Below, in pieces: positions 19,986 through 62,672 of a DNA stretch of 64,000 nt. Positions within the stretch are counted from its first letter, which is position 1. Each line of letters starts with the position of its first letter. A program made the position numbers and the translations under genes. The stretch is taken from the NCBI GenBank assembly GCA_963835065.1, contig CAWIEK010000003.1, positions 128,001 through 192,000 of the forward strand, in the 5' to 3' direction. Under the pieces are notes generated by a model. That model was not told the DNA's origin. It worked only from the letters and a program-made list of their open reading frames with translations, and did no database searches. Origin of the DNA: an uncultured Chthonomonadaceae bacterium (GTDB taxonomy: Bacteria > Armatimonadota > Chthonomonadetes > Chthonomonadales > Chthonomonadaceae).

Positions 19986-21354
19986 ATGTCTTCTCAGCAC
20001 CCTGAAAGCCTGTTTGGGACAGAAGAAACAACCCCATCTGTTTCTGTTCCCGACGTTGATCCCAATGCGCCGCTTGCTGCCCGGATGCGCCCGCGTACTC
20101 TGGATGAGTTTGCCGGGCAGGAGGGCGTTGTCGGGCCGGGAACGGGACTGCGCCGCGCCATTGAAAACGATCAGCTTACGTCCGTTTTGCTGTGGGGACC
20201 GCCCGGAACCGGCAAATCCACGCTGGCCGAAATTATTGCCCGCACGACCCGCGCCCATTTTGAAAAACTCAATTCGACAACCAGCGGCGTGGCCGATGTG
20301 CGCAAAGTGATCGAAGCCGCCCGTGAGCGTCGGCGCAAATTGAAGCGCAAAACCATTCTCTTTGTGGATGAGATCCACCGCTGGAACAAGGCGCAGCAGG
20401 ACGCGCTGCTGCCGCATGTCGAGGATGGAACCGTTGTGCTGATCGGCGCGACAACCGAGAACCCGTACTTTGAAGTGAACGCGCCCCTGCTGTCCCGTTC
20501 GCGCCTGTTCCGTTTCGAGCGCCTGTCCGAAGAAGCGGTACAACAACTGCTAATTCGCGCCCTGGCCGATGGGGAACGGGGGCTGGGAGAATTGCATATC
20601 CACGCCGATGCCGACGCGCTGGCGTTTCTGGCGCAGATTTCGGGCGGGGATGCGCGGCGGGCGTTGAGCGCGCTGGATTCCGCCGCGCAGTCCCTGACGC
20701 CGGATGCTGAAGGCACAGCGGCATTTGACGCTGGCATTGGCGGAAGAAGGGGCGCAGGCGCGTTCCGTGTCTTATGACCGGGATGGCGACGAGCATTACG
20801 ATACGGTATCCGCCTTCATCAAGTCCATGCGCGGCTCCGACCCCGATGGGGCGCTATACTGGCTCGCCAAAATGCTTCTAGCGGGCGAGGACATCAAGTT
20901 TATCGCGCGCCGACTGGTGATACTTGCCAGTGAAGATGTGGGCAACGCCGACCCCCTTGCGCTTGTCGTGGCGAACGCAGCCGTGCAAACCGTGATGTTC
21001 GTCGGCATGCCCGAAGCGCAATTAACGCTGTCGCAGGCCGTCACCTATCTTGCATGCGCGCCCAAGAGCAACGCCGCCACCCTTGCTATCGGGCGAGCCA
21101 TGGAAACTATCAAGACGCAGGGCGCGCTTCCCGTTCCCATCCACCTGCGCGACAGCCACTATCCCGGCGCAAAACGCCTGGGGCACGGCGACGGCTACCT
21201 GTACCCCCATGATTTCCCCAACCACCACGTCGCGCAGCAATACCTTCCTGCCGGCGTGATCGGAACCCCCTTCTACGAACCAACCGAGCAAGGGCAGGAA
21301 GCAGCCATCAAAGCGCTTATGGAACGCAAAAGAGACGTTTCGGAACCCGAATAA
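19986..21354 (+). CDS. rarA: Replication-associated recombination protein RarA/MgsA (frameshift near 20720)
   Basis: PLAARMRPRTLDE, GPPGTGKST, DEIHRWNKAQQD, GATTENP; SAFIKSMRGSDPD, ASEDVGNADP. Confidence 0.93.
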
Positions 21355-21528: not shown

Positions 21529-23520
21529 ATGATGAGACTACTGGAAAGCGGGCTGGCGCAGGCGAAAGCGTGGTATGCGGCGCAGGCGCTCAGTTCGGAC
21601 AGCGAAGCAGAGCGAAAGCGAGCCATGCAGACGCTGCGCGAATTAGGCGCGGCCAGCCTGCCGTCCCTCCACGCCACCATTCGCCGCACGGGAGCGCCCC
21701 GCGCCCAATTCAGCGCGGCGGTGGTGCTGCACTGGCTTGGCAATCCCCTGGGGATCAGCGTTCTCCTGGACGGCTTGAAGTGGCAGTTGCCTTCCGAGCC
21801 TCAACTGGCGCGCGACCTTGAAGCCTGCTTTATTCAAATCGGCTCGCCGGACGCGCCCGCCGCCCTCATTCCCGTGTGGAAGCAATTGCTGACGACCAAA
21901 GACAACAAGCGCGTCCGCAAAACCATTTGCCGCGTTTGGGCCGCCTGCAAAGACCCCCGCGTACTGACGGTTCTGGCCGATACCGCGCTGGAACACGCGG
22001 AATTGTTCGAGGAAACCGTTCCCAAATTCGGCGAGGCCGCGCTGGATATGCTGGCGCAAATGCTCCTTGATCCCCTGCCCGCAAAACGCAGCCTTGCCGT
22101 CCGTACCGCGCGCCATATTCCTTCGCCGGATACCACAATGCTGCTGTTCCCCCTGCTGCGCGACCCCGACCACAGCGTTCGCGCCCTGATTCCGCACACG
22201 CTGGTGGGATTGGGGCGGCAGTACACCGGCAATCTGGACATTTACACCCCTATGCTGAACGCCCTGGAAGCCGGGTACAGCACGCCGCAGGCGATTGCCA
22301 TTCTGCTGAACCGTTTTCCGCTTCCTTACGATGCTCTGCTCCGCCTGGTACTGCGCTGGAATGGACAGCAGGAATCATCGGGAGATACGCTGGAAGCGGT
22401 TTTGACGGCACTGCCCGCGCTGGGCAACATGCCCCTGTACAGCATGGGCGCGCGCAGTGAACTCCAACAGCAGCTTTGCGGCGTACTTGCCCGCCGTCCC
22501 GAACCCGCCCTGATCGTCGGCATTGCGCGCATTCTCGCCATGCACGGACGCGGGCCGGAATACACCGGCGCGCAGACACGGACGGTTTTGCTTTCCCTGC
22601 TGCCGCACCCGGACGCCGAAGTTCGCATCCAGATGGGACACACGCTTGCCGTTTTTGAGGATCAGGTCGGCAAACAGATGCAGCAATTGGTGGAAGCGGC
22701 CTGGCCGCAGCCCAACCTGCGCGGCAAATTTCAATCCCTCCTGCGTGGTGGTTCTGATGCCACACAGGTCGCCAATCAGGCAATGCAGTGGTTCACAAAA
22801 TTCTCCAAAGACACGATGGAGCGCTGGAACGCCCCTCACTCCGGCAACGGCGACTCGCCTGTCCCGGTCCATGACCCGCGCTGTCCCGATCTGATACGGC
22901 AACTGCTGGACAATTCCCTGTCCGCGCTCCATGCCGGCGCGGGCGATCAGGCCGAAACCACGCGAGACCTGGCGATTGCCTGCATCCGCGCGCTTGTCCG
23001 CATGGACGCTCCCATTGCCCGAACCGCGCGCAGTCAGTTTGTTCGCGCCCTGCTTTCGGCTACCCTGCCGGTCAAACTTGCGCCTGCCAATGCCTATGGA
23101 CACGGCGAGCCTCAGCTTCAGGATGGCAGTGACGATGTGCGCCTTGCGGCAGGGCAGGCGCTGTTGTCCCTTTACGGCGCGGATAGTTTTCCCCTGTTCG
23201 TCGAGGCGATACACGCGCCCCAACTTGCTGTCCGACTGACGGGAATCGCGTTTTTGGGCGAGCTTGGCGAAGTGCGCGGTTTGTCCCTGCTGCAAGCCCT
23301 GGCCGCGCAAAACGATTTACTGGTATCCCCGGCAGCAAGCGCCGCGATTGCCCGCATCCGCCAGCGCAACCCGGAAACCATGACCCTGCTGCGCGCGTCC
23401 ACCCTAAGCGACGGGCGGCCCGAAACCCTGCTGCGCCCGGCTTTGGGGAACATCGCGCCCACGCCGCCCGACTTACTGCTGCGTCCCGCTGAACACCCCG
23501 CGCCATCTTCCCAAACATAA
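21529..23520 (+). CDS. HEAT-repeat protein with triple-LLR tail (paralogue 1)
   Basis: HEAT-like units (LLRDPDHSVR, LLPHPDAEVR); tail TLLRAS..ETLLRP..DLLLRP. Confidence 0.75.
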   Translation: MMRLLESGLAQAKAWYAAQALSSDSEAERKRAMQTLRELGAASLPSLHATIRRTGAPRAQFSAAVVLHWLGNPLGISVLLDGLKWQLPSEPQLARDLEACFIQIGSPDAPAALIPVWKQLLTTKDNKRVRKTICRVWAACKDPRVLTVLADTALEHAELFEETVPKFGEAALDMLAQMLLDPLPAKRSLAVRTARHIPSPDTTMLLFPLLRDPDHSVRALIPHTLVGLGRQYTGNLDIYTPMLNALEAGYSTPQAIAILLNRFPLPYDALLRLVLRWNGQQESSGDTLEAVLTALPALGNMPLYSMGARSELQQQLCGVLARRPEPALIVGIARILAMHGRGPEYTGAQTRTVLLSLLPHPDAEVRIQMGHTLAVFEDQVGKQMQQLVEAAWPQPNLRGKFQSLLRGGSDATQVANQAMQWFTKFSKDTMERWNAPHSGNGDSPVPVHDPRCPDLIRQLLDNSLSALHAGAGDQAETTRDLAIACIRALVRMDAPIARTARSQFVRALLSATLPVKLAPANAYGHGEPQLQDGSDDVRLAAGQALLSLYGADSFPLFVEAIHAPQLAVRLTGIAFLGELGEVRGLSLLQALAAQNDLLVSPAASAAIARIRQRNPETMTLLRASTLSDGRPETLLRPALGNIAPTPPDLLLRPAEHPAPSSQT

Positions 23521-23547
23521 ACAGGCTATAAGGAAGCCGCAAAATCT

Positions 23548-24552
23548 ATGTTGCCGTCCCGTTTTCAACATGCCGCGCCCAATTCCCTGCGTTCCCGCTT
23601 CCACGCCTGCCGCCTGCGCGTTCAGAACGGCTGGCAGTGGCGGCGGCAAATCGCGCATCTTGGCAGCGCAAACCACGCTGAGTACGCAAGCGCGGCGGAA
23701 TGGCTGTTGGCGCGGCACGAACCGGCGCGGCCTCAACTGCACCGCGCGCTCAGAGCGGCTTCCCCGGTTGCCTGCGGCGCGGCAGGGGTATTGCATCAGC
23801 TTGGCGATTCGCAGGGGGTGCGCTATATATTGCTGCGCGCCTATCAGGATGAGTGGTTTACCCACTATCCCGCACAGGACATTTCGGCGTCAGCGCATCA
23901 TCTCGAACAGCGCATCGGAGCAGAGCCAATACGGCAGGTGATATGGCAGGCGCTTGAAGACGCTTGCTACGCTCCCAACGCGCAAGCCTGCCTGCAAACC
24001 CTGACGATTGCCCTGAGCGGGCTGCGCGCCCTGAACGTAATCGCTTCCCATTCTGAAGCGCCTTCCAATAGCAAGAACGACACTTCCTTCTGGATGCAGG
24101 CATTTCTTTTTGGGACTGCCCAATTGCCTCCTTACAAGCAGGCGATCACCTCCATGCCCCTGCTTGCCAACATGACCGGCTGGATTCGCGCCGAAGCCAT
24201 GCGCGGACTATTGCGCGAACATTCTGCGGATATATGCCTGCCAGTTTTCTCGGACGCGCTGCAAGCGGAGGATCAATCCGTCGTCCGCAGCGCCATTATC
24301 GCGCTGCAATGCCTGGGGAATCCCCGCGCTGTTCCCGCGCTGGAAACCCTTGCGTTCACAACCGGGCATCCGCTTTCCCTGCCGGCCCGCCGCGCCATCG
24401 AGCGCCTTGCCGGGACACAAGCCGAAGTTCTCACGCTGGTACGCGCCTCCCGCGAAGACGTAGAAGCCGAAGAACTGCTCCGAGCCGCCCATCCCACGCG
24501 CCCCGAAGCGGCGGAAGGGGAACGGGAAACGCTGCTGCATGTGAGGCATTAG
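23548..24552 (+). CDS. HEAT-repeat protein with triple-LLR tail (paralogue 2)
   Basis: SVVRSAIIALQCLGNPRAVPALE; tail TLVRAS..EELLRA..ETLLH. Confidence 0.7.
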   Translation: MLPSRFQHAAPNSLRSRFHACRLRVQNGWQWRRQIAHLGSANHAEYASAAEWLLARHEPARPQLHRALRAASPVACGAAGVLHQLGDSQGVRYILLRAYQDEWFTHYPAQDISASAHHLEQRIGAEPIRQVIWQALEDACYAPNAQACLQTLTIALSGLRALNVIASHSEAPSNSKNDTSFWMQAFLFGTAQLPPYKQAITSMPLLANMTGWIRAEAMRGLLREHSADICLPVFSDALQAEDQSVVRSAIIALQCLGNPRAVPALETLAFTTGHPLSLPARRAIERLAGTQAEVLTLVRASREDVEAEELLRAAHPTRPEAAEGERETLLHVRH

Positions 24553-24633
24553 GCATCAGGCATTAGATACAAGAGAGAAGAGAGAAGACAGAAGGTACTT
24601 GTTCCTAATGCCTGATGCCTAATGCCTGATGCC
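24544..24633. repeat. AGGCAT(T/C) heptamer inverted-arm element, copy 1
   Basis: AGGCATT/C x3 ... TAATGCC/TGATGCC x4; spacer AGATACAAGA..AGAAGGTACTTGT shared with 33295-33362. Confidence 0.85.
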
Positions 24634-24675
24634 TACTCAGGAGGTGCTTTTCTGCGCGAACTTGTAGAAGATACA

Positions 24676-25701
24676 ATGGATTGGCTGACGGCGCGCTGCG
24701 GCCTGCCGGTTATGGAGCGGGGGCCGCGCCATCTGCGGGCGGCGGTTCGCCATCTGGACAGCCCAAATAATGCCCGCCGCTTGCGCGCCGAAACGGAATT
24801 GCAGGCGGCGCTTCCCGGTCATGCCCGCTCCCTGCTGCATCGCGCGGCGCGTTCCGGGGGGCGCAGCCGCGCCATCCGCGCAACCTTGCTGCTGACGCAA
24901 ATGCAGGATCGGCAGGGGCGCGAACTGCTGCACCAGTTGATACAGGAACCAGGGCTGCGGCAGGGAGAACAGGGCGAAAACTTGCGCCATGCCGCCCGAT
25001 TATTGCTCACGCCCGAACGCTACGCGCAGCAGGCGCGGGGCGCGCTGGCCCTGTTGGAACAGCGCCCGGAAAGCTGCCGGGCGATTGCGCTGTTTCGGCA
25101 GGCGACCGAAATACTGCGCTTCATGCGCGCGCCACTGCCCTCGGACATTTTGGATCGCGCGCTCGTCGTTCGCACGGTCGGGGGCGAAAACCTGAGCATG
25201 GCGCGGGCTGCCCTGCGCGGAACCCTGGGCGTAGACGTGGAGCATATCTGCCTGATTCGCAAGGAGGCCGTTCTGATGCTTCTCCACGCGCCCGACCATT
25301 CTTATGCCCTGAAACGCCTGCTGCGCGCCGCCGCGTATCCCAACCCTGCCGTGCAGTTGACCGCTCTGTTCGGACTGGCGGAACTCAACGATCCGCGCGG
25401 CGTTGACGTTGCGCTGCCTATCGCGCAGGATGATTCCAGTCCCATTCAGGAGGATGCGCGGGAAGTTTTGGCGCGGCTGAACCGACTCGCCTCCGCCCCG
25501 CTCACGCTCCTCCGGGCTTCCGAGCGGCAGCCGGAACCCGCAAAGGAACTGCTGCGCTCCACGCGCCCCTTTTCAGATGATTACGACGCCCTGTTGCGCT
25601 CCTCTCCTCATTTGCAGACGCCGGGTAAACCGAATGAAGGTAGGAATCAACAGAAAACAGGCGCAAACAGCCCTGAACAGCAGCAAATCAACGGCAACTG
25701 A
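24676..25701 (+). CDS. HEAT-repeat protein with triple-LLR tail (paralogue 3)
   Basis: AVQLTALFGLAELNDPRG; tail TLLRAS..KELLRS..DALLRS. Confidence 0.7.
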   Translation: MDWLTARCGLPVMERGPRHLRAAVRHLDSPNNARRLRAETELQAALPGHARSLLHRAARSGGRSRAIRATLLLTQMQDRQGRELLHQLIQEPGLRQGEQGENLRHAARLLLTPERYAQQARGALALLEQRPESCRAIALFRQATEILRFMRAPLPSDILDRALVVRTVGGENLSMARAALRGTLGVDVEHICLIRKEAVLMLLHAPDHSYALKRLLRAAAYPNPAVQLTALFGLAELNDPRGVDVALPIAQDDSSPIQEDAREVLARLNRLASAPLTLLRASERQPEPAKELLRSTRPFSDDYDALLRSSPHLQTPGKPNEGRNQQKTGANSPEQQQINGN

Positions 25702-25745
25702 AAATCAAGCAGGAAATTGAGGAACGCAGGAGCAAATAACCTTTC

Positions 25746-26705
25746 ATGCTTTCGGACACTTTTGGACGCTATTATTCCCTGTACCGAGTTCACCGCGCCA
25801 TTCGCCTGCTCAACGACCCGCGCCTTCCCCTGCGCGCGGACGCGAAAGAGCAGCTGCGGAGCGCGCGTTCGCTGAGCGTGAAACCTTTGCGGCAGGTCGC
25901 CTTTCGACAGCGCTCCCTGCTCGCCATCCATGCGGCGGAACTGCTCATCGAAATGGACGACGCGCAGGGATTGTACGCCCTGCTTGCGCAATACTCCGAC
26001 CGCTATCTGGCATCGTGGCATGGGCAGCATCTGCGCATGATTTTGGGGCGCGTGGGCAGCGAGCGGATTCTGCGCGTTCTGGAAGCCTCCCTGGACTGGA
26101 TGGAAACTTCGCCCCTGCTGCGCGAACACTGGTGTCTGTCGCTGTCCGTGTATGCCCTTCATGCGCTCGAAGCCCTGCGCGCCCGCGTCCCTTTTTCGCT
26201 GTGGCGGCGCGCGCTGTCCGCGTACTCGCCGGGTTTTGAGGATTTGCGCGCGTGCCGCGCAGTGGTTTCCATGAATGAGATTCTGGGCAGTTCCGCATCC
26301 GCGCATGACGACAACTGGCGCGTCGGTTCCACGCTTGCCGCCGTGCGCCGGGTTGCCATAGACGCCCTGCTCACCTTAGACCGCGCCCATGCGTTCGACC
26401 TGCTGCGCGACGCGCTGGCCCACTCTGCCCCGGAAGTGCAATTAACCGCGCTGTACGGCCTGGCGCACCTGCGCGACCCGCGCGCTTACGTGCTGCTTCA
26501 ACCTATCGCCGCGGATCGCCGCCATCCCCTGGCGCGGGATGCCCGCCGCGTCATCGAATCTTTCGGTTCGCGCCAGCCGGACGCGCTGACCCTGGTTCGC
26601 GCCGCCGCGCCGCAGGAAATCCGTCCGAACGAACTCTTGCGTCCCACCACGCCCGTAACCGACGCCGACCCGGATACGCTGCTAAGAGTAGTCAGTAGTC
26701 AGTAG
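25746..26705 (+). CDS. HEAT-repeat protein with triple-LLR tail (paralogue 4)
   Basis: EVQLTALYGLAHLRDPRA; tail TLVRAA..NELLRP..DTLLRV. Confidence 0.72.
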   Translation: MLSDTFGRYYSLYRVHRAIRLLNDPRLPLRADAKEQLRSARSLSVKPLRQVAFRQRSLLAIHAAELLIEMDDAQGLYALLAQYSDRYLASWHGQHLRMILGRVGSERILRVLEASLDWMETSPLLREHWCLSLSVYALHALEALRARVPFSLWRRALSAYSPGFEDLRACRAVVSMNEILGSSASAHDDNWRVGSTLAAVRRVAIDALLTLDRAHAFDLLRDALAHSAPEVQLTALYGLAHLRDPRAYVLLQPIAADRRHPLARDARRVIESFGSRQPDALTLVRAAAPQEIRPNELLRPTTPVTDADPDTLLRVVSSQ

Positions 26706-59336: not shown

Positions 59337-62300
59337 CTACGCCGGGGTTTCGGTTCCGGGTTCCACGGTGGGCGGCGTAACGGCTTCTGCGTTCCCGGCA
59401 TTTCCCGCCGAGCCGTCGCCATGCTGCGCCCCGTTGGAAGTTGCAGATGTTGTGCCGTTGCCGTCCTGCCCAGATGTTTTATTGTCTCCGGCTGTTGATG
59501 CGCCGTCGCCGTTTGTGTTTGCATTGCTGCCGTTGTGCGCGCTGAGGAGCGGGGCAGGCGGCGTGGGATTAGAAACCACAGAAGTGGCTTCCTCGTCGTC
59601 ATCGTCGTTCAGTCCCAGTTTGGCAAGGGCAAGCTGTTCGGCAATGTCCTGCATGCTTTCGGCCTGCGCGCTGCTGGCGTCACGGGCGCGGGTCGTTGCC
59701 CATTCGCGCAGGTCTTCGATGCGTTCGCGCATGGTCATGGATAAGGGAACCGAGTGCGTTGCTGCGGCCACAATGGACTCGGTTGTCAGGGTTTTGTTTT
59801 CATCGAAAGCGTCGTACAGCGCTTCCACAACCGCCGCTTCGATTTCCGCGCCGGAAAAGCCGGGCGTGGCGTCGGCCAGTTTGTCCAAATTAAAATCATC
59901 GGGACTGCGCTTGCGTTTGTTCAGATGGATTTTGAAAATCTCCACGCGCTCGACATGGGAAGGCAGGTCAATAAAGAAGATTTCATCGAAGCGGCCTTTG
60001 CGCAGCAGTTCCGGCGGCAGGCTGGTCACGTCGTTGGAAGTCGCCACCACGAACGCCGCCGCTTTCTTGTCCTGCATCCACGTCAGAAACGTGCCGAACA
60101 CCCGACTCGTCGTGCCGCCATCCGAAGAACCGGAGCTTTGCGTACCACTAAAGCCCTTTTCTAATTCATCCAACCAAAGTATACAGTTGTGAACTGTGAT
60201 TGAGTTAGATAAAAAATTGTGTTCATTTACACAAAGTAAATCAAATACGTACTCCGGCGTTGGCGCTTGTTCAACGCTCTTGACACGACTCCAGCCAATT
60301 GGGCTGTTCACAAGCGCCTCAACCTGCATCAGTTCTGCCGTATCTAGTTGCCTTGCTTCCGCCCACTCGCGCAACTCCTGCGTAATCTCACGCAATCGTT
60401 GCCGATTGGGATGGGCTGTACCATGCTCGTACAAGTGGAACAAACCAGAACTTGTTGACTGAAACTTCTGCGACCCCATGCCCATAGCCTGCCGAACATG
60501 ACGCAGTTTGCTGCCAACAGGAATCATGTCGGTGCGGTCTTTGTGTTCTGTTGTCGGCGTTTTTGCCATCCATTCATCCATGCGTTGACGGCGGCACGGA
60601 TGCTGCGACCCAACTTGTTCAATGAAGCGCCGCACGTTGCGTATGCCTGTAACTTCGATGTTTTCCCACCCCGGATTAGTAGTCGGGAACCCAACGCGCT
60701 GCAGAACCGAGCGTATAACCAAGTTGTTGGCAGGAACTTTGCAGGTTATTATTATTTTCGGATTAGCCGCTGTTTTGCTGTTCGAAACATGCCCGTCGCC
60801 ATCAATGTAGCCGCGCAACCAAGCGTTCAGGAATGTTGCCGGCATGGTCAGCAATTGCGCTTTTACATTGTTCAGGATACGGCACAGCAACGCGCTGTAG
60901 ACGTAGCTGGTGTAGCAGGGCTTGAAAACGCTTTGCTGGCTTGTGCCTGCTAACTGCGAATTCTTGTTGTCGTAGTCGTTGAGCCGAATTCTTGTTTCCA
61001 AACCGAAGATGTTTTTCAGCGAGGCGGAGAACAGACGGTGCAGCGTCATGTCGGTATTGACAAAGCCCACTGCGCCGCGCTTGCCCAAGAAGCCGTCACT
61101 GCAAATCAGGCCGAGCAGGTAGCCAATGTCTTCGTTGAGTTCTCCCGGCAGTTGGGTTAGGACGCTGCTGTTCGTGTTGCCTTTACTCTGCGCAAACTCC
61201 GTTATGTGATGGAAGCAGGGATACTCCTGCGGGTCGGCCAGTTCGTTGACAGCCACATAATCGTAGGCAAGGCTTCGTAGAGCGGCGAGACGGCGGCTTT
61301 GCTGCACGGACGGCAGCGCAAAGAACACTGCGCCGGGCGCGTACAGGCGCGTGTCTTCCGGCAGGAAGTCTATCATGGGCGGCATGTCGGGGCGAGTCGG
61401 AATCGTCTGCGGAATGGCGACGTAATCCGTATCGCGCAGGGCGTCCGCGCGTACCCATTCCAGTTCGCCGTCGCGCAGGACGGGAAACTCATGGTTGCTG
61501 GTGGCCTGTACGCGGCTGTGCTGCAATTCTACGGTGTACAGGTCGGGCGCTTCGCGGCGGGTGATGGCTTTGACCGGGTTGGGCACAATCTGCCAGTCGT
61601 CCGTCATGGACAGCACTTCCAGATGCGTTTCCTGACCGTTGTACAGCGACTCAATCGTCCGTTCGGAACCATCGGCAAGCGTAATCAGGGTATCGCCGGC
61701 GACGCAGGGCGCAACCGACTCCGCCGTGCGAATCGCTTTGCGCATGTTTTCTTCGGATTGACCAACAATACCGCCGAATATACGCCCAATATCTAAGCGC
61801 AAAAGCGGTAATCGCCATAAAGAACCGATTGCTTTTGCACTCAAGCTCTTGCCGCATCCTTGGACCCCTAGCAAAAGGACGCCGCGCGGGGCGGGCAGGC
61901 CGAAATCGCGGGCTTTTTCGGTGAACGCGACGGTGCGCTTTTCCATCCAGTCCTTGAGCAAGTCCAGACCGCCGACGTCGCCGATTTTCTCGTTGAACGG
62001 ATAGTATTCCAGAATGCCCGACTTGCGGATGATCTGCTCTTTTTCGCTTAAAATCACGTCTACGTCAAACTTGTGCTTTTCAATCAGCGATTTGGCGAAC
62101 ACGTTTTCCGCTTCGTTGGCGGTCAAGCCCTGCGCCGCTTTGAGAACTTGATCCCGCTCCAGTTCCGCGAGGTTAGCGTCAATCTGCGGATTTTCCTTGA
62201 CCGCCTGCACGACGCGCTCCAAAATCACGTCCAGATCGTCGTGGTCGGGCAGGCCGTAATCCACAACCGCGATGTCTTTTTCTAGTTCACTGGGCAGTTT

Positions 62301-62672
62301 CAGCACGGGCGCGAGAATGACGAGGGTTTTGTAACTTGTTTTCAGGGCGGCGGTCAGGTCGCGCAATCGCCGGATTACGGTCACGTCGCTCATGAAGGCG
62401 TGGTAATCCTTCAGCACGAAAAGCGCCTGTTCGCGGGAGTCGATCACGGCGTCCAGCGCGGCCATCGGGTCGCGGGTGGCGTTGTCGCGGTGGGCGGGGT
62501 TTTGCACCATGCCCTGCGTGACCGTCCAGAAGAAAATCTTTTTGCCGCGTTCGCGGGCGATTTCGCGCAGGGCGTCTTCTACGCGCTGCTCTTCCCACGA
62601 GACGATATAAATAATCGGGTAACGCGCCCGAATGAGGGTTTCCAGTTCTTTGTCAACCGAGGATGATGCCAA
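59337..62672 (-). CDS. Ycf46-like AAA+ ATPase containing an intein
   Basis: LIRARYPIIYIVSWEEQR, EKEQIIRK, GVQGCGKS, ILWLDELEK, PPELLRKGRFDEIFFIDLP. Confidence 0.92.
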   Translation of the reverse strand: MASSSVDKELETLIRARYPIIYIVSWEEQRVEDALREIARERGKKIFFWTVTQGMVQNPAHRDNATRDPMAALDAVIDSREQALFVLKDYHAFMSDVTVIRRLRDLTAALKTSYKTLVILAPVLKLPSELEKDIAVVDYGLPDHDDLDVILERVVQAVKENPQIDANLAELERDQVLKAAQGLTANEAENVFAKSLIEKHKFDVDVILSEKEQIIRKSGILEYYPFNEKIGDVGGLDLLKDWMEKRTVAFTEKARDFGLPAPRGVLLLGVQGCGKSLSAKAIGSLWRLPLLRLDIGRIFGGIVGQSEENMRKAIRTAESVAPCVAGDTLITLADGSERTIESLYNGQETHLEVLSMTDDWQIVPNPVKAITRREAPDLYTVELQHSRVQATSNHEFPVLRDGELEWVRADALRDTDYVAIPQTIPTRPDMPPMIDFLPEDTRLYAPGAVFFALPSVQQSRRLAALRSLAYDYVAVNELADPQEYPCFHHITEFAQSKGNTNSSVLTQLPGELNEDIGYLLGLICSDGFLGKRGAVGFVNTDMTLHRLFSASLKNIFGLETRIRLNDYDNKNSQLAGTSQQSVFKPCYTSYVYSALLCRILNNVKAQLLTMPATFLNAWLRGYIDGDGHVSNSKTAANPKIIITCKVPANNLVIRSVLQRVGFPTTNPGWENIEVTGIRNVRRFIEQVGSQHPCRRQRMDEWMAKTPTTEHKDRTDMIPVGSKLRHVRQAMGMGSQKFQSTSSGLFHLYEHGTAHPNRQRLREITQELREWAEARQLDTAELMQVEALVNSPIGWSRVKSVEQAPTPEYVFDLLCVNEHNFLSNSITVHNCILWLDELEKGFSGTQSSGSSDGGTTSRVFGTFLTWMQDKKAAAFVVATSNDVTSLPPELLRKGRFDEIFFIDLPSHVERVEIFKIHLNKRKRSPDDFNLDKLADATPGFSGAEIEAAVVEALYDAFDENKTLTTESIVAAATHSVPLSMTMRERIEDLREWATTRARDASSAQAESMQDIAEQLALAKLGLNDDDDEEATSVVSNPTPPAPLLSAHNGSNANTNGDGASTAGDNKTSGQDGNGTTSATSNGAQHGDGSAGNAGNAEAVTPPTVEPGTETPA
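60186..61706 (-). mobile_element. Intein (507 aa) with LAGLIDADG homing endonuclease
   Basis: N-terminal CVAGDT, block B ATSNHEF, YLLGLICSDG and WLRGYIDGDG, C-terminal VFDL..HNF..TVHN followed by Cys(+1). Confidence 0.95.

Follow-up and report, generated by a model that had tools for sequence, protein, structure and literature searches.

Introduction

Polymorphic-toxin immunity and the adaptors of AAA+ ATPases are both known themes; what is new here is a link between a family of tail-bearing HEAT-repeat proteins and a putative toxin locus, together with the co-distribution of the tail with a TPR-containing AAA+ ATPase. The subject of this study is a C-terminal tail of three Leu-Leu-Arg (LLR) units carried by four adjacent genes in a 64,000-nucleotide stretch (the window; positions 128,001 to 192,000 of contig CAWIEK010000003.1) from the genome of an uncultured Chthonomonadaceae soil bacterium (G000; 8.0 Mb, 92% complete). 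We tentatively favour the view, which we would put slightly short of an even chance, that the tail is a portable motif array docking its carriers to one ring-shaped partner, and that most carriers are immunity-type guards against the membrane-inserting toxins of competitors.

Among described systems, the RHS polymorphic toxins and polyimmunity loci surveyed by Zhang et al. (2012; PMC3482391) are the closest in gene organization. In the part of the survey covered here, an RHS core with a variable C-terminal domain, an immunity gene directly 3' of it, orphan cassettes and co-oriented arrays of immunity paralogues are all described, as seen in the present loci, and both HEAT-repeat and two-transmembrane (TM) immunity families (Imm-CdiI, Imm17) are listed. 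There, however, HEAT immunity pairs with Tox-REase-7 and stands apart from the TM families, while in the present family a TM hairpin is inserted in the HEAT solenoid and a shared tail stands at the end. The string 'Armatimonad' does not occur in the first 300,000 characters of that source.

Two other systems resemble the toxin side. The ionophore toxins of contact-dependent inhibition (CDI) with their hydrophobic CdiI proteins (Halvorsen et al. 2024, PMC11630599), in the portion of the report consulted, share with the present loci a predicted five-helix membrane toxin, a putative glycine zipper and a highly polymorphic, cognate hydrophobic immunity protein immediately 3'; they differ in that RHS proteins make the delivery here, of which one has an N-terminal region resembling a C39 peptidase, and in that the domain here has four invariant Cys and no Pfam match, and the protein in the immunity position has a large cytoplasmic HEAT domain and a tail. 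Immunity to the glycine-zipper toxin EsxX of Staphylococcus, a substrate of type VII secretion (T7SS) of the LXG class, is provided by the soluble ExiAB and the membrane-bound ExiCD, the latter also found as an orphan (PMC12744356). Common to both systems are orphan membrane immunity genes in toxin-free strains and the coexistence of soluble and membrane protectors, whereas the T7SS/LXG delivery differs and the portion of that description consulted has no shared docking tail; the likeness drawn here is one of description.

The bodies of most tail carriers are of the PBS-lyase HEAT type (Pfam HEAT_2/HEAT_PBS, NblB, alphaRep), families which share the repeat type and lack both the tail and the TM hairpin. 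The tail itself has a parallel in the recruitment of AAA+ ATPases: cofactors of p97/Cdc48 (VIM, VBM and SHP motifs) and of Vps4 (MIT-MIM) combine a folded recognition domain with a flexible tail in which a short Leu/Arg motif recruits a hexameric AAA+ ATPase of the classic clade at membranes. The carriers described here have the same predicted arrangement of folded domain and flexible tail, and the AAA domain of our candidate partner is closest to VAT/p97. On the other hand, the candidate's single AAA domain is preceded by TPRs in place of the p97 N-domain, and the LLR triple is presumably unlike the VIM, VBM, SHP or MIM motifs.

Results

A short tail on unrelated proteins

An iterated hidden Markov model (HMM) search with the tail converged on 66 open reading frames (ORFs) of G000, in all of which the motif ends at most 50 residues from the C-terminus; a six-frame scan gave 72 segments of at least 20 bits, frameshifted pieces included, against 15.5 bits for the best reversed-sequence decoy. 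The preliminary description had dealt with the four window genes; their tails are real, and they are 4 of 66 rather than a private group. The bodies fall into a HEAT-type cluster of 42, an unrelated family of 14 with a basic N-terminal motif, two TM helices and no HEAT repeats, and 10 singletons including a DUF3592-like protein, so that the genome-wide scan suggested earlier does find the tail on at least three unrelated bodies. A TM helix is predicted in 48 of the 66 carriers, and the usual layout is a HEAT unit, a TM hairpin, a HEAT domain and then the tail.

The expectation that the tail belongs to no named family was borne out within the databases searched: Pfam finds nothing over the tail residues in 52 of the 66 carriers, all scanned as whole proteins, nor in the four window proteins, NCBIfam yields no family for 56 tails (best E 0.066), and a search of Atlas with the tail gave no usable match. 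The literature searched, whose coverage ended short of most subscription papers and of all supplements, yielded no publication describing the tail, the TM-HEAT proteins or the ATPase. Tail genes have a GC content at third codon positions (GC3) of 0.63, below the genome value of 0.69.

The tail is restricted to the order of the window, Chthonomonadales, in a sample of the phylum: 17 of 201 genomes match the profile, all of them within the order (family f1 10/10, f3 6/8, f2 0/1, all others 0/181). Within the order, 63 of 68 genomes have it, with 2 to 89 matches each; this range, together with the 66 ORFs of G000, sets it apart from a local duplication relic. Three of the order's tail-less genomes were examined, and the body family is missing from them too, weak generic HEAT matches aside. 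Searches of plasmids and phages gave no match, and a word-based database search with the tail returned 56 proteins, listed without taxa.

Some carriers depart from the usual form. A subfamily in two genomes (G005 and G004; loci L067, L075 and L077) has the triple motif internally with one more HEAT unit after it, and a small soluble Trp-rich protein without a Pfam match (G000 C1:41516-41896, locus L253, and also L079) ends in two or three LLR-like units. In three database proteins (P0017, P0019, P0022) a Clp_N domain is fused to a TM-HEAT-tail protein; we regard this as a weak Rosetta clue, because in G000 Clp_N is joined to unrelated bodies too, in three stand-alone fusions. In another genome, a long co-oriented island (L158-L159; G002 C4:28000-56000) has eight or more tail genes amid ankyrin-like genes and genes for small membrane proteins, and resembles a heterogeneous polyimmunity locus. 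Near-identical stretches occur on separate contigs of G000 (C57/C58/C36, C27/C29 and C28/C53), the TPR-AAA+ gene included, and some copy counts may thus be inflated by strain duplicates.

Conservation and predicted structure of the tail

In an alignment of 85 HEAT-plus-tail regions the L-L-R positions are the peak of conservation, a comparison biased by the choice of rows by their tails. Mean pairwise identity is 14% for the hairpin, 25% for the HEAT domain and 34% for the tail. A less biased set is provided by 11 orthologues of the first window gene, found by searching with a whole window protein, and here too the tail is the most conserved segment, at 57% mean identity against 27-43% elsewhere, which agrees with what had been proposed from the four window genes. 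When the search is made with the body alone, 40 matches of at least 35 bits are found in G000, and the tail follows in frame in 36 of them and behind an apparent frameshift in the other 4. The first step between LLR units measures 13-16 residues in 60 of 62 cases and the second 14-16 in 59 of 62, the spacers keeping their length while diverging in sequence, and the Leu and Arg codons vary synonymously. Because of this in-frame retention, fixed spacing and synonymous freedom, selection acts, as judged from the sequences, on the tail as a peptide.

The same observations bear on the idea of a recombination handle that works at the DNA level, or of a relic of duplication. Tail genes do occur in tandem arrays, and identical 3' ends are shared by neighbours within RHS arrays, in keeping with such a handle; yet L-L-R is fixed while its codons are free, the spacers are kept in length and not in sequence, and the tail has been retained across two families. 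We consider this explanation largely refuted and give it hardly any weight.

An AlphaFold2 (AF2) model built from the 85 sequences places the HEAT domain at a predicted local distance difference test (pLDDT) score above 90 and the tail at about 55: the last long HEAT helix continues into the first LLR, and what follows is modelled as unstructured. The carriers thus show the pattern of adaptors, a folded domain followed by a predicted disordered tail with a conserved short motif. Fold searches with the HEAT bodies returned generic HEAT structures only, with alphaRep and armadillo designs as the top matches (E at least 1e-3).

HEAT solenoids bind peptides, and the tail might therefore bind the HEAT domains of other family members, forming a multivalent membrane lattice with no separate receptor; the joint loss of body and tail in three genomes (G024, G025 and G019) would fit. 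Against this, the model shows no docking of the tail on its own HEAT domain, the polar HEAT surface is less conserved than the tail, and 14 carriers have no HEAT domain at all, and we find such a lattice highly unlikely. Quite probably, what the tail docks to is a single oligomeric partner shared by its carriers. Of the docking, sorting or degradation signal suggested at the outset, the lineage-specific docking signal for a common partner stands, because confinement to four duplicated genes, a match to a known Pfam repeat and conservation no better than that of the bodies were each tested and none held; a sorting or secretion signal is less likely, the majority of carriers being integral to the membrane, with the tail placed after a cytoplasmic HEAT domain.

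Association with putative RHS toxin loci

Searching with the bodies beyond the order led to a genome (G039) in which two tail-less TM-HEAT genes lie directly 3' of an RHS gene whose product has at its C-terminus a hydrophobic domain rich in Cys and Gly, and an orphan cassette follows. A homologous domain is present on one of the 17 RHS ends of G000, and this is the sole RHS end there that is followed by a tail gene (0 of the other 16). The tail gene in question (C3:102669) is AT-rich, with a GC3 of 0.40 against 0.69 for the genome, and has another RHS fragment on its 3' side. The toxin gene itself (C3:96604-102002, partly L012) is in frameshifted pieces encoding a signal-peptide-like start, a TPR-like region and a domain that we named C39-peptidase-like by eye; Sec export of this protein would fit its Cys-rich tip. 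A different genome, G013, has 43 RHS core matches, which lie in large cassette arrays.

Profile searches located the Cys-rich domain at 20 loci in 8 of the 68 genomes of the order, plus the 2 in G039. Using a downstream-gene profile built without the cognate gene of G000, the gene next to the domain matches the TM-HEAT family at 12 of these 22 loci, 6 at E<1e-9 and 6 weakly (10-19 bits); at one locus (L199), where the gene appears to be split, the score is that of the longer, second piece. Among the 11 held-out loci, which were found in the second round only, 4 match the family, and all 11 downstream genes have at least two predicted TM segments. As controls, 30 RHS loci were taken from five other genomes; of the 27 with a scorable downstream ORF, 2 gave weak matches, the ORF being in both cases the same soluble 127-aa gene. 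Fisher's exact test for toxin-domain loci against controls gives p 4e-4, an overstated value because related loci are not independent.

The domain forms 96 clusters at 50% identity and has no match in Pfam, and no relatives of the G000 version were confirmed on metagenome contigs. All versions share the four Cys residues; the model has five helices (pLDDT 69), and its best fold match (Z 8.8) is to generic helical bundles only. Since a family gene lies directly downstream of the RHS C-terminal domain, inside arrays of RHS genes and orphan cassettes, the Cys-rich domain and the TM-HEAT gene have, by gene order, the layout of a toxin-immunity pair, which holds for a minority of family members.

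Search for a shared partner

Phylogenetic profiling, which had been proposed as a route to a receptor, yielded a candidate from a listing of the AAA+ proteins of G000. This single-copy protein of 452 aa (C57:147431) consists of TPRs (a region of about residues 35-180), one AAA domain and AAA_lid_3, and among solved structures its ATPase domain is closest to VAT/p97/Cdc48, with E-values added up over two domains. Within the order, 63 of the 68 genomes have it, including 61 of the 63 with tails; the two genomes that lack it are 80% and 64% complete. Neither genome of genus g22, both tail-less, has it, and G021 (64% complete) has neither tail nor ATPase. In the phylum sample it occurs in 20 of 121 genomes, in families f1, f3, f14 and f29 only. 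Identity over the first TPR segment is 47-83% within the order and lies at 15-31% for f14/f29. The profiling thus gave a candidate that follows the tail closely, though not exclusively, since it is kept in two tail-less genomes; its distribution amounts to nesting plus one co-loss, and we treat it as a lead. That this p97-like ATPase is the shared partner, acting as an extractor, is doubtful, though its range makes it a concrete candidate.

Other candidates were tried and set aside. A first TPR-AAA+ protein (C44:318791) occurs in only 9 of the 68 genomes; PspA is present in 5 of 5 genomes, tail-less ones included; dynamin has no full-length match in G000 and is present in tail-less genomes; and no conserved neighbour of the tail genes recurs besides Cof-type HAD and PPK2 genes. 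The small LLR-like protein at C1:41516, found in 0 of 5 genomes, was uninformative, clustering of paralogues pointed to no obvious partner, and a likeness of the tail to the FtsZ tail and to UBact was, as judged by eye, superficial.

We also considered that the tail may be a degron or turnover tag, making the carriers short-lived by way of FtsH, Clp or the ARC/proteasome with UBact as general protease, and not a recruiter for action on a third protein. A C-terminal, predicted disordered, Leu/Arg-rich segment would suit this role, Clp_N fusions exist, and at C49:30215-41576 G000 encodes proteasome subunits together with an ARC-like ATPase, a pair of PafA/Dop-like proteins and a UBact-like ORF of 62 aa whose last residues are GQ, where the family names ARC and UBact, and some others, are those we take to apply. 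Yet the proteasome/UBact system, in 73 of 121 genomes, is far too widespread for a partner of the tail, and the kinase of the phosphoarginine (pArg) McsB-ClpC route, sought as PF00217, was not found in the 92%-complete G000, the control in B. subtilis being positive. In addition, three proteins have a further HEAT unit after the tail, and we know of no C-terminal degron resembling a triple unit of fixed spacing with up to 50 free residues behind it. A degron is in our opinion distinctly unlikely.

The four genes of the window

The window genes are co-oriented ORFs of the plus strand, as originally described, and all pass the Pfam HEAT_2 gathering cut-off of 27.7, with 84.4, 29.0, 37.4 and 29.9 bits for genes A to D (E 7e-24 to 1.4e-6); no further family rises above its cut-off in the Pfam scan. 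Gene A (21529..23520) encodes a 663-aa soluble HEAT solenoid, an apparently single-copy orthologue conserved across the family, whose tail, TLLRAS..ETLLRP..DLLLRP (23359..23496), is the segment of highest conservation in the orthologue set. Gene B (23548..24552), for a soluble HEAT protein of 334 aa with the tail TLVRAS..EELLRA..ETLLH (24409..24549), is also 3' of gene A in G002, G006, G011 and G162. Gene C (24622..25701; 359 aa, soluble HEAT protein; tail TLLRAS..KELLRS..DALLRS at 25480..25611) has orthologues in G001, G002, G004 and G007, and gene D (25746..26705; 319 aa, likewise soluble HEAT; tail TLVRAA..NELLRP..DTLLR at 26565..26699) adjoins Cof-type HAD and PPK2 genes in G001, G002, G004, G005 and G018. 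All four tails, also on the plus strand, were thus found as first quoted, a triple L-[LV]-[RH], as was a shared N-terminal unit, which ends in L-x-x-[LM]-x-[ND]-x-x-G.

The bodies are indeed highly diverged: stripped of their tails, the second and fourth proteins share 27% identity (E 7e-11), the third and fourth 31% (E 4e-16), and the first compares with the rest at E of at least 0.02. No TM helix is predicted in any of the four, and an amphipathic-helix scan gave moments of 0.3-0.55 with no clear membrane anchor. An identity as NblB or CpcE-F lyase was rejected, since the NblB-type HEAT model (NCBIfam NF045915) scores a sub-threshold 21-31 bits in three of the proteins, with a cut-off of 300, and has no match in the fourth.

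Gene A has 17 orthologous loci in GTDB, all titled Chthonomonadaceae, Chthonomonadales or Chthonomonas, and database homologues likewise bear these names. The four genes are separate, long-lived orthologues, in part syntenic with Cof-HAD and PPK2, and their GC3 is host-like (0.67-0.74; genome 0.69); in the window they are flanked by mgsA/rarA, Cof-HAD and PPK2. Among the loci displayed, an RHS gene is near their orthologues in one (G011), with an SMI1-like gene in between. The four proteins are old, vertically kept orthologues without the hairpin, and are likely soluble users of the same dock, as adaptors or regulators.

Three neighbouring features were also recorded. In the window, mgsA/rarA (19986-21354) is broken into two overlapping ORFs, AAA and then MgsA_C, which, together with the frameshifted tail genes elsewhere, suggests indel errors in the assembly. 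In G004, the orthologue of gene D retains two LLR-like units and its reading frame continues through to the Cof-type HAD gene (L121:6740-8548), by fusion or loss of a stop. At 59337-62672 on the minus strand of the window, a 1111-aa AAA+ protein is broken by an intein with a LAGLIDADG domain.

Discussion

We suggest the following mechanism for the membrane-bound carriers. The fast-evolving two-helix hairpin would capture a membrane protein that is foreign or damaged, as gene order and the variability of this segment suggest; that it recognizes inserted toxins in particular seems to us evenly balanced. The cytoplasmic HEAT domain, according to the AF2 model, would serve as a folded spacer, its last long helix ending in the first LLR, and two more units would follow in the predicted disordered tail. 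The three units may then engage several subunits of one hexamer, which would give high avidity, and the TPR-containing p97/Cdc48-like ATPase, a candidate by its distribution, might extract the captured protein for degradation.

A number of observations weigh against this mechanism. On the toxin side, a single one of the 66 tail genes of G000 is toxin-adjacent, the other 65 being orphans; the toxin domain was found in 8 of the order's 68 genomes, against 63 for the tail; 10 of the 22 toxin-domain loci have other proteins next to them, besides the 6 weak matches among the 12; and the four window genes are adjacent to no toxin gene or cassette, so that they have no direct toxin link. On a quick tree of poor resolution, the toxin-adjacent rows have long branches and fall in scattered places. 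The 12 toxin-adjacent family genes have a full tail in 3 cases, a reduced one in 6 (two motifs, often LLH) and none in 3, and the tail is therefore not needed for cognate immunity. On the partner side, the tail-less G025 and G019 keep the ATPase with a conserved TPR, as do families f14 and f29; in 19 loci it shows no linkage to tail genes; and the co-loss of tail and ATPase is one event in one genus, for about the seventh candidate tried.

Alternatively, the carriers may be housekeeping scaffolds of the membrane or quality-control adaptors, with coat-, repair- or signalling-like functions, of which a few fast-evolving members were later recruited as immunity genes, the tail still docking a common partner. 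In favour of this, several orphan subfamilies are old, slow-evolving and present in the two families that make up the order, which is not typical of orphan immunity genes; genes A to D are conserved, syntenic and host-like in GC3; most tail-bearing genomes have no detectable cognate toxin; and the tail decays in toxin-adjacent copies. Such a role does not readily explain, however, why copy number varies from 2 to 89 per genome, why the hairpin is the most variable part, why the tail genes as a whole are lower in GC3 than their genome and stand in tandem arrays among small membrane proteins, or why tail-less relatives beyond the order lie behind the same toxin domain. We regard a housekeeping origin of this kind as possible but rather unlikely.

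If most carriers are immunity-type guards, as we tentatively favour, one may speculate further about an innate defence of Chthonomonadales akin to endoplasmic-reticulum-associated degradation (ERAD), in which variable sensors in the membrane, dozens of them and all descended from immunity proteins of RHS systems, catch membrane-inserting toxins and recruit through their tails the TPR-p97-like ATPase, which extracts the toxins for the resident proteasome to degrade, the four soluble window proteins being conserved adaptors or regulators; in its entirety we consider this scheme unlikely. Known immunity proteins mostly block their toxins one-to-one, and a shared docking tail, if true, would point to a common clearing step that removes toxins from the membrane, and to a bacterial parallel to the recruitment of p97 and Vps4 by short linear motifs. 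The candidate partner is concrete and testable, in a poorly studied phylum. Regardless of mechanism, the tail is an unnamed order-specific motif that can be used as a marker, and the Cys-rich RHS C-terminal domain, in its 96 clusters, is an unnamed family with a likely immunity family beside it.

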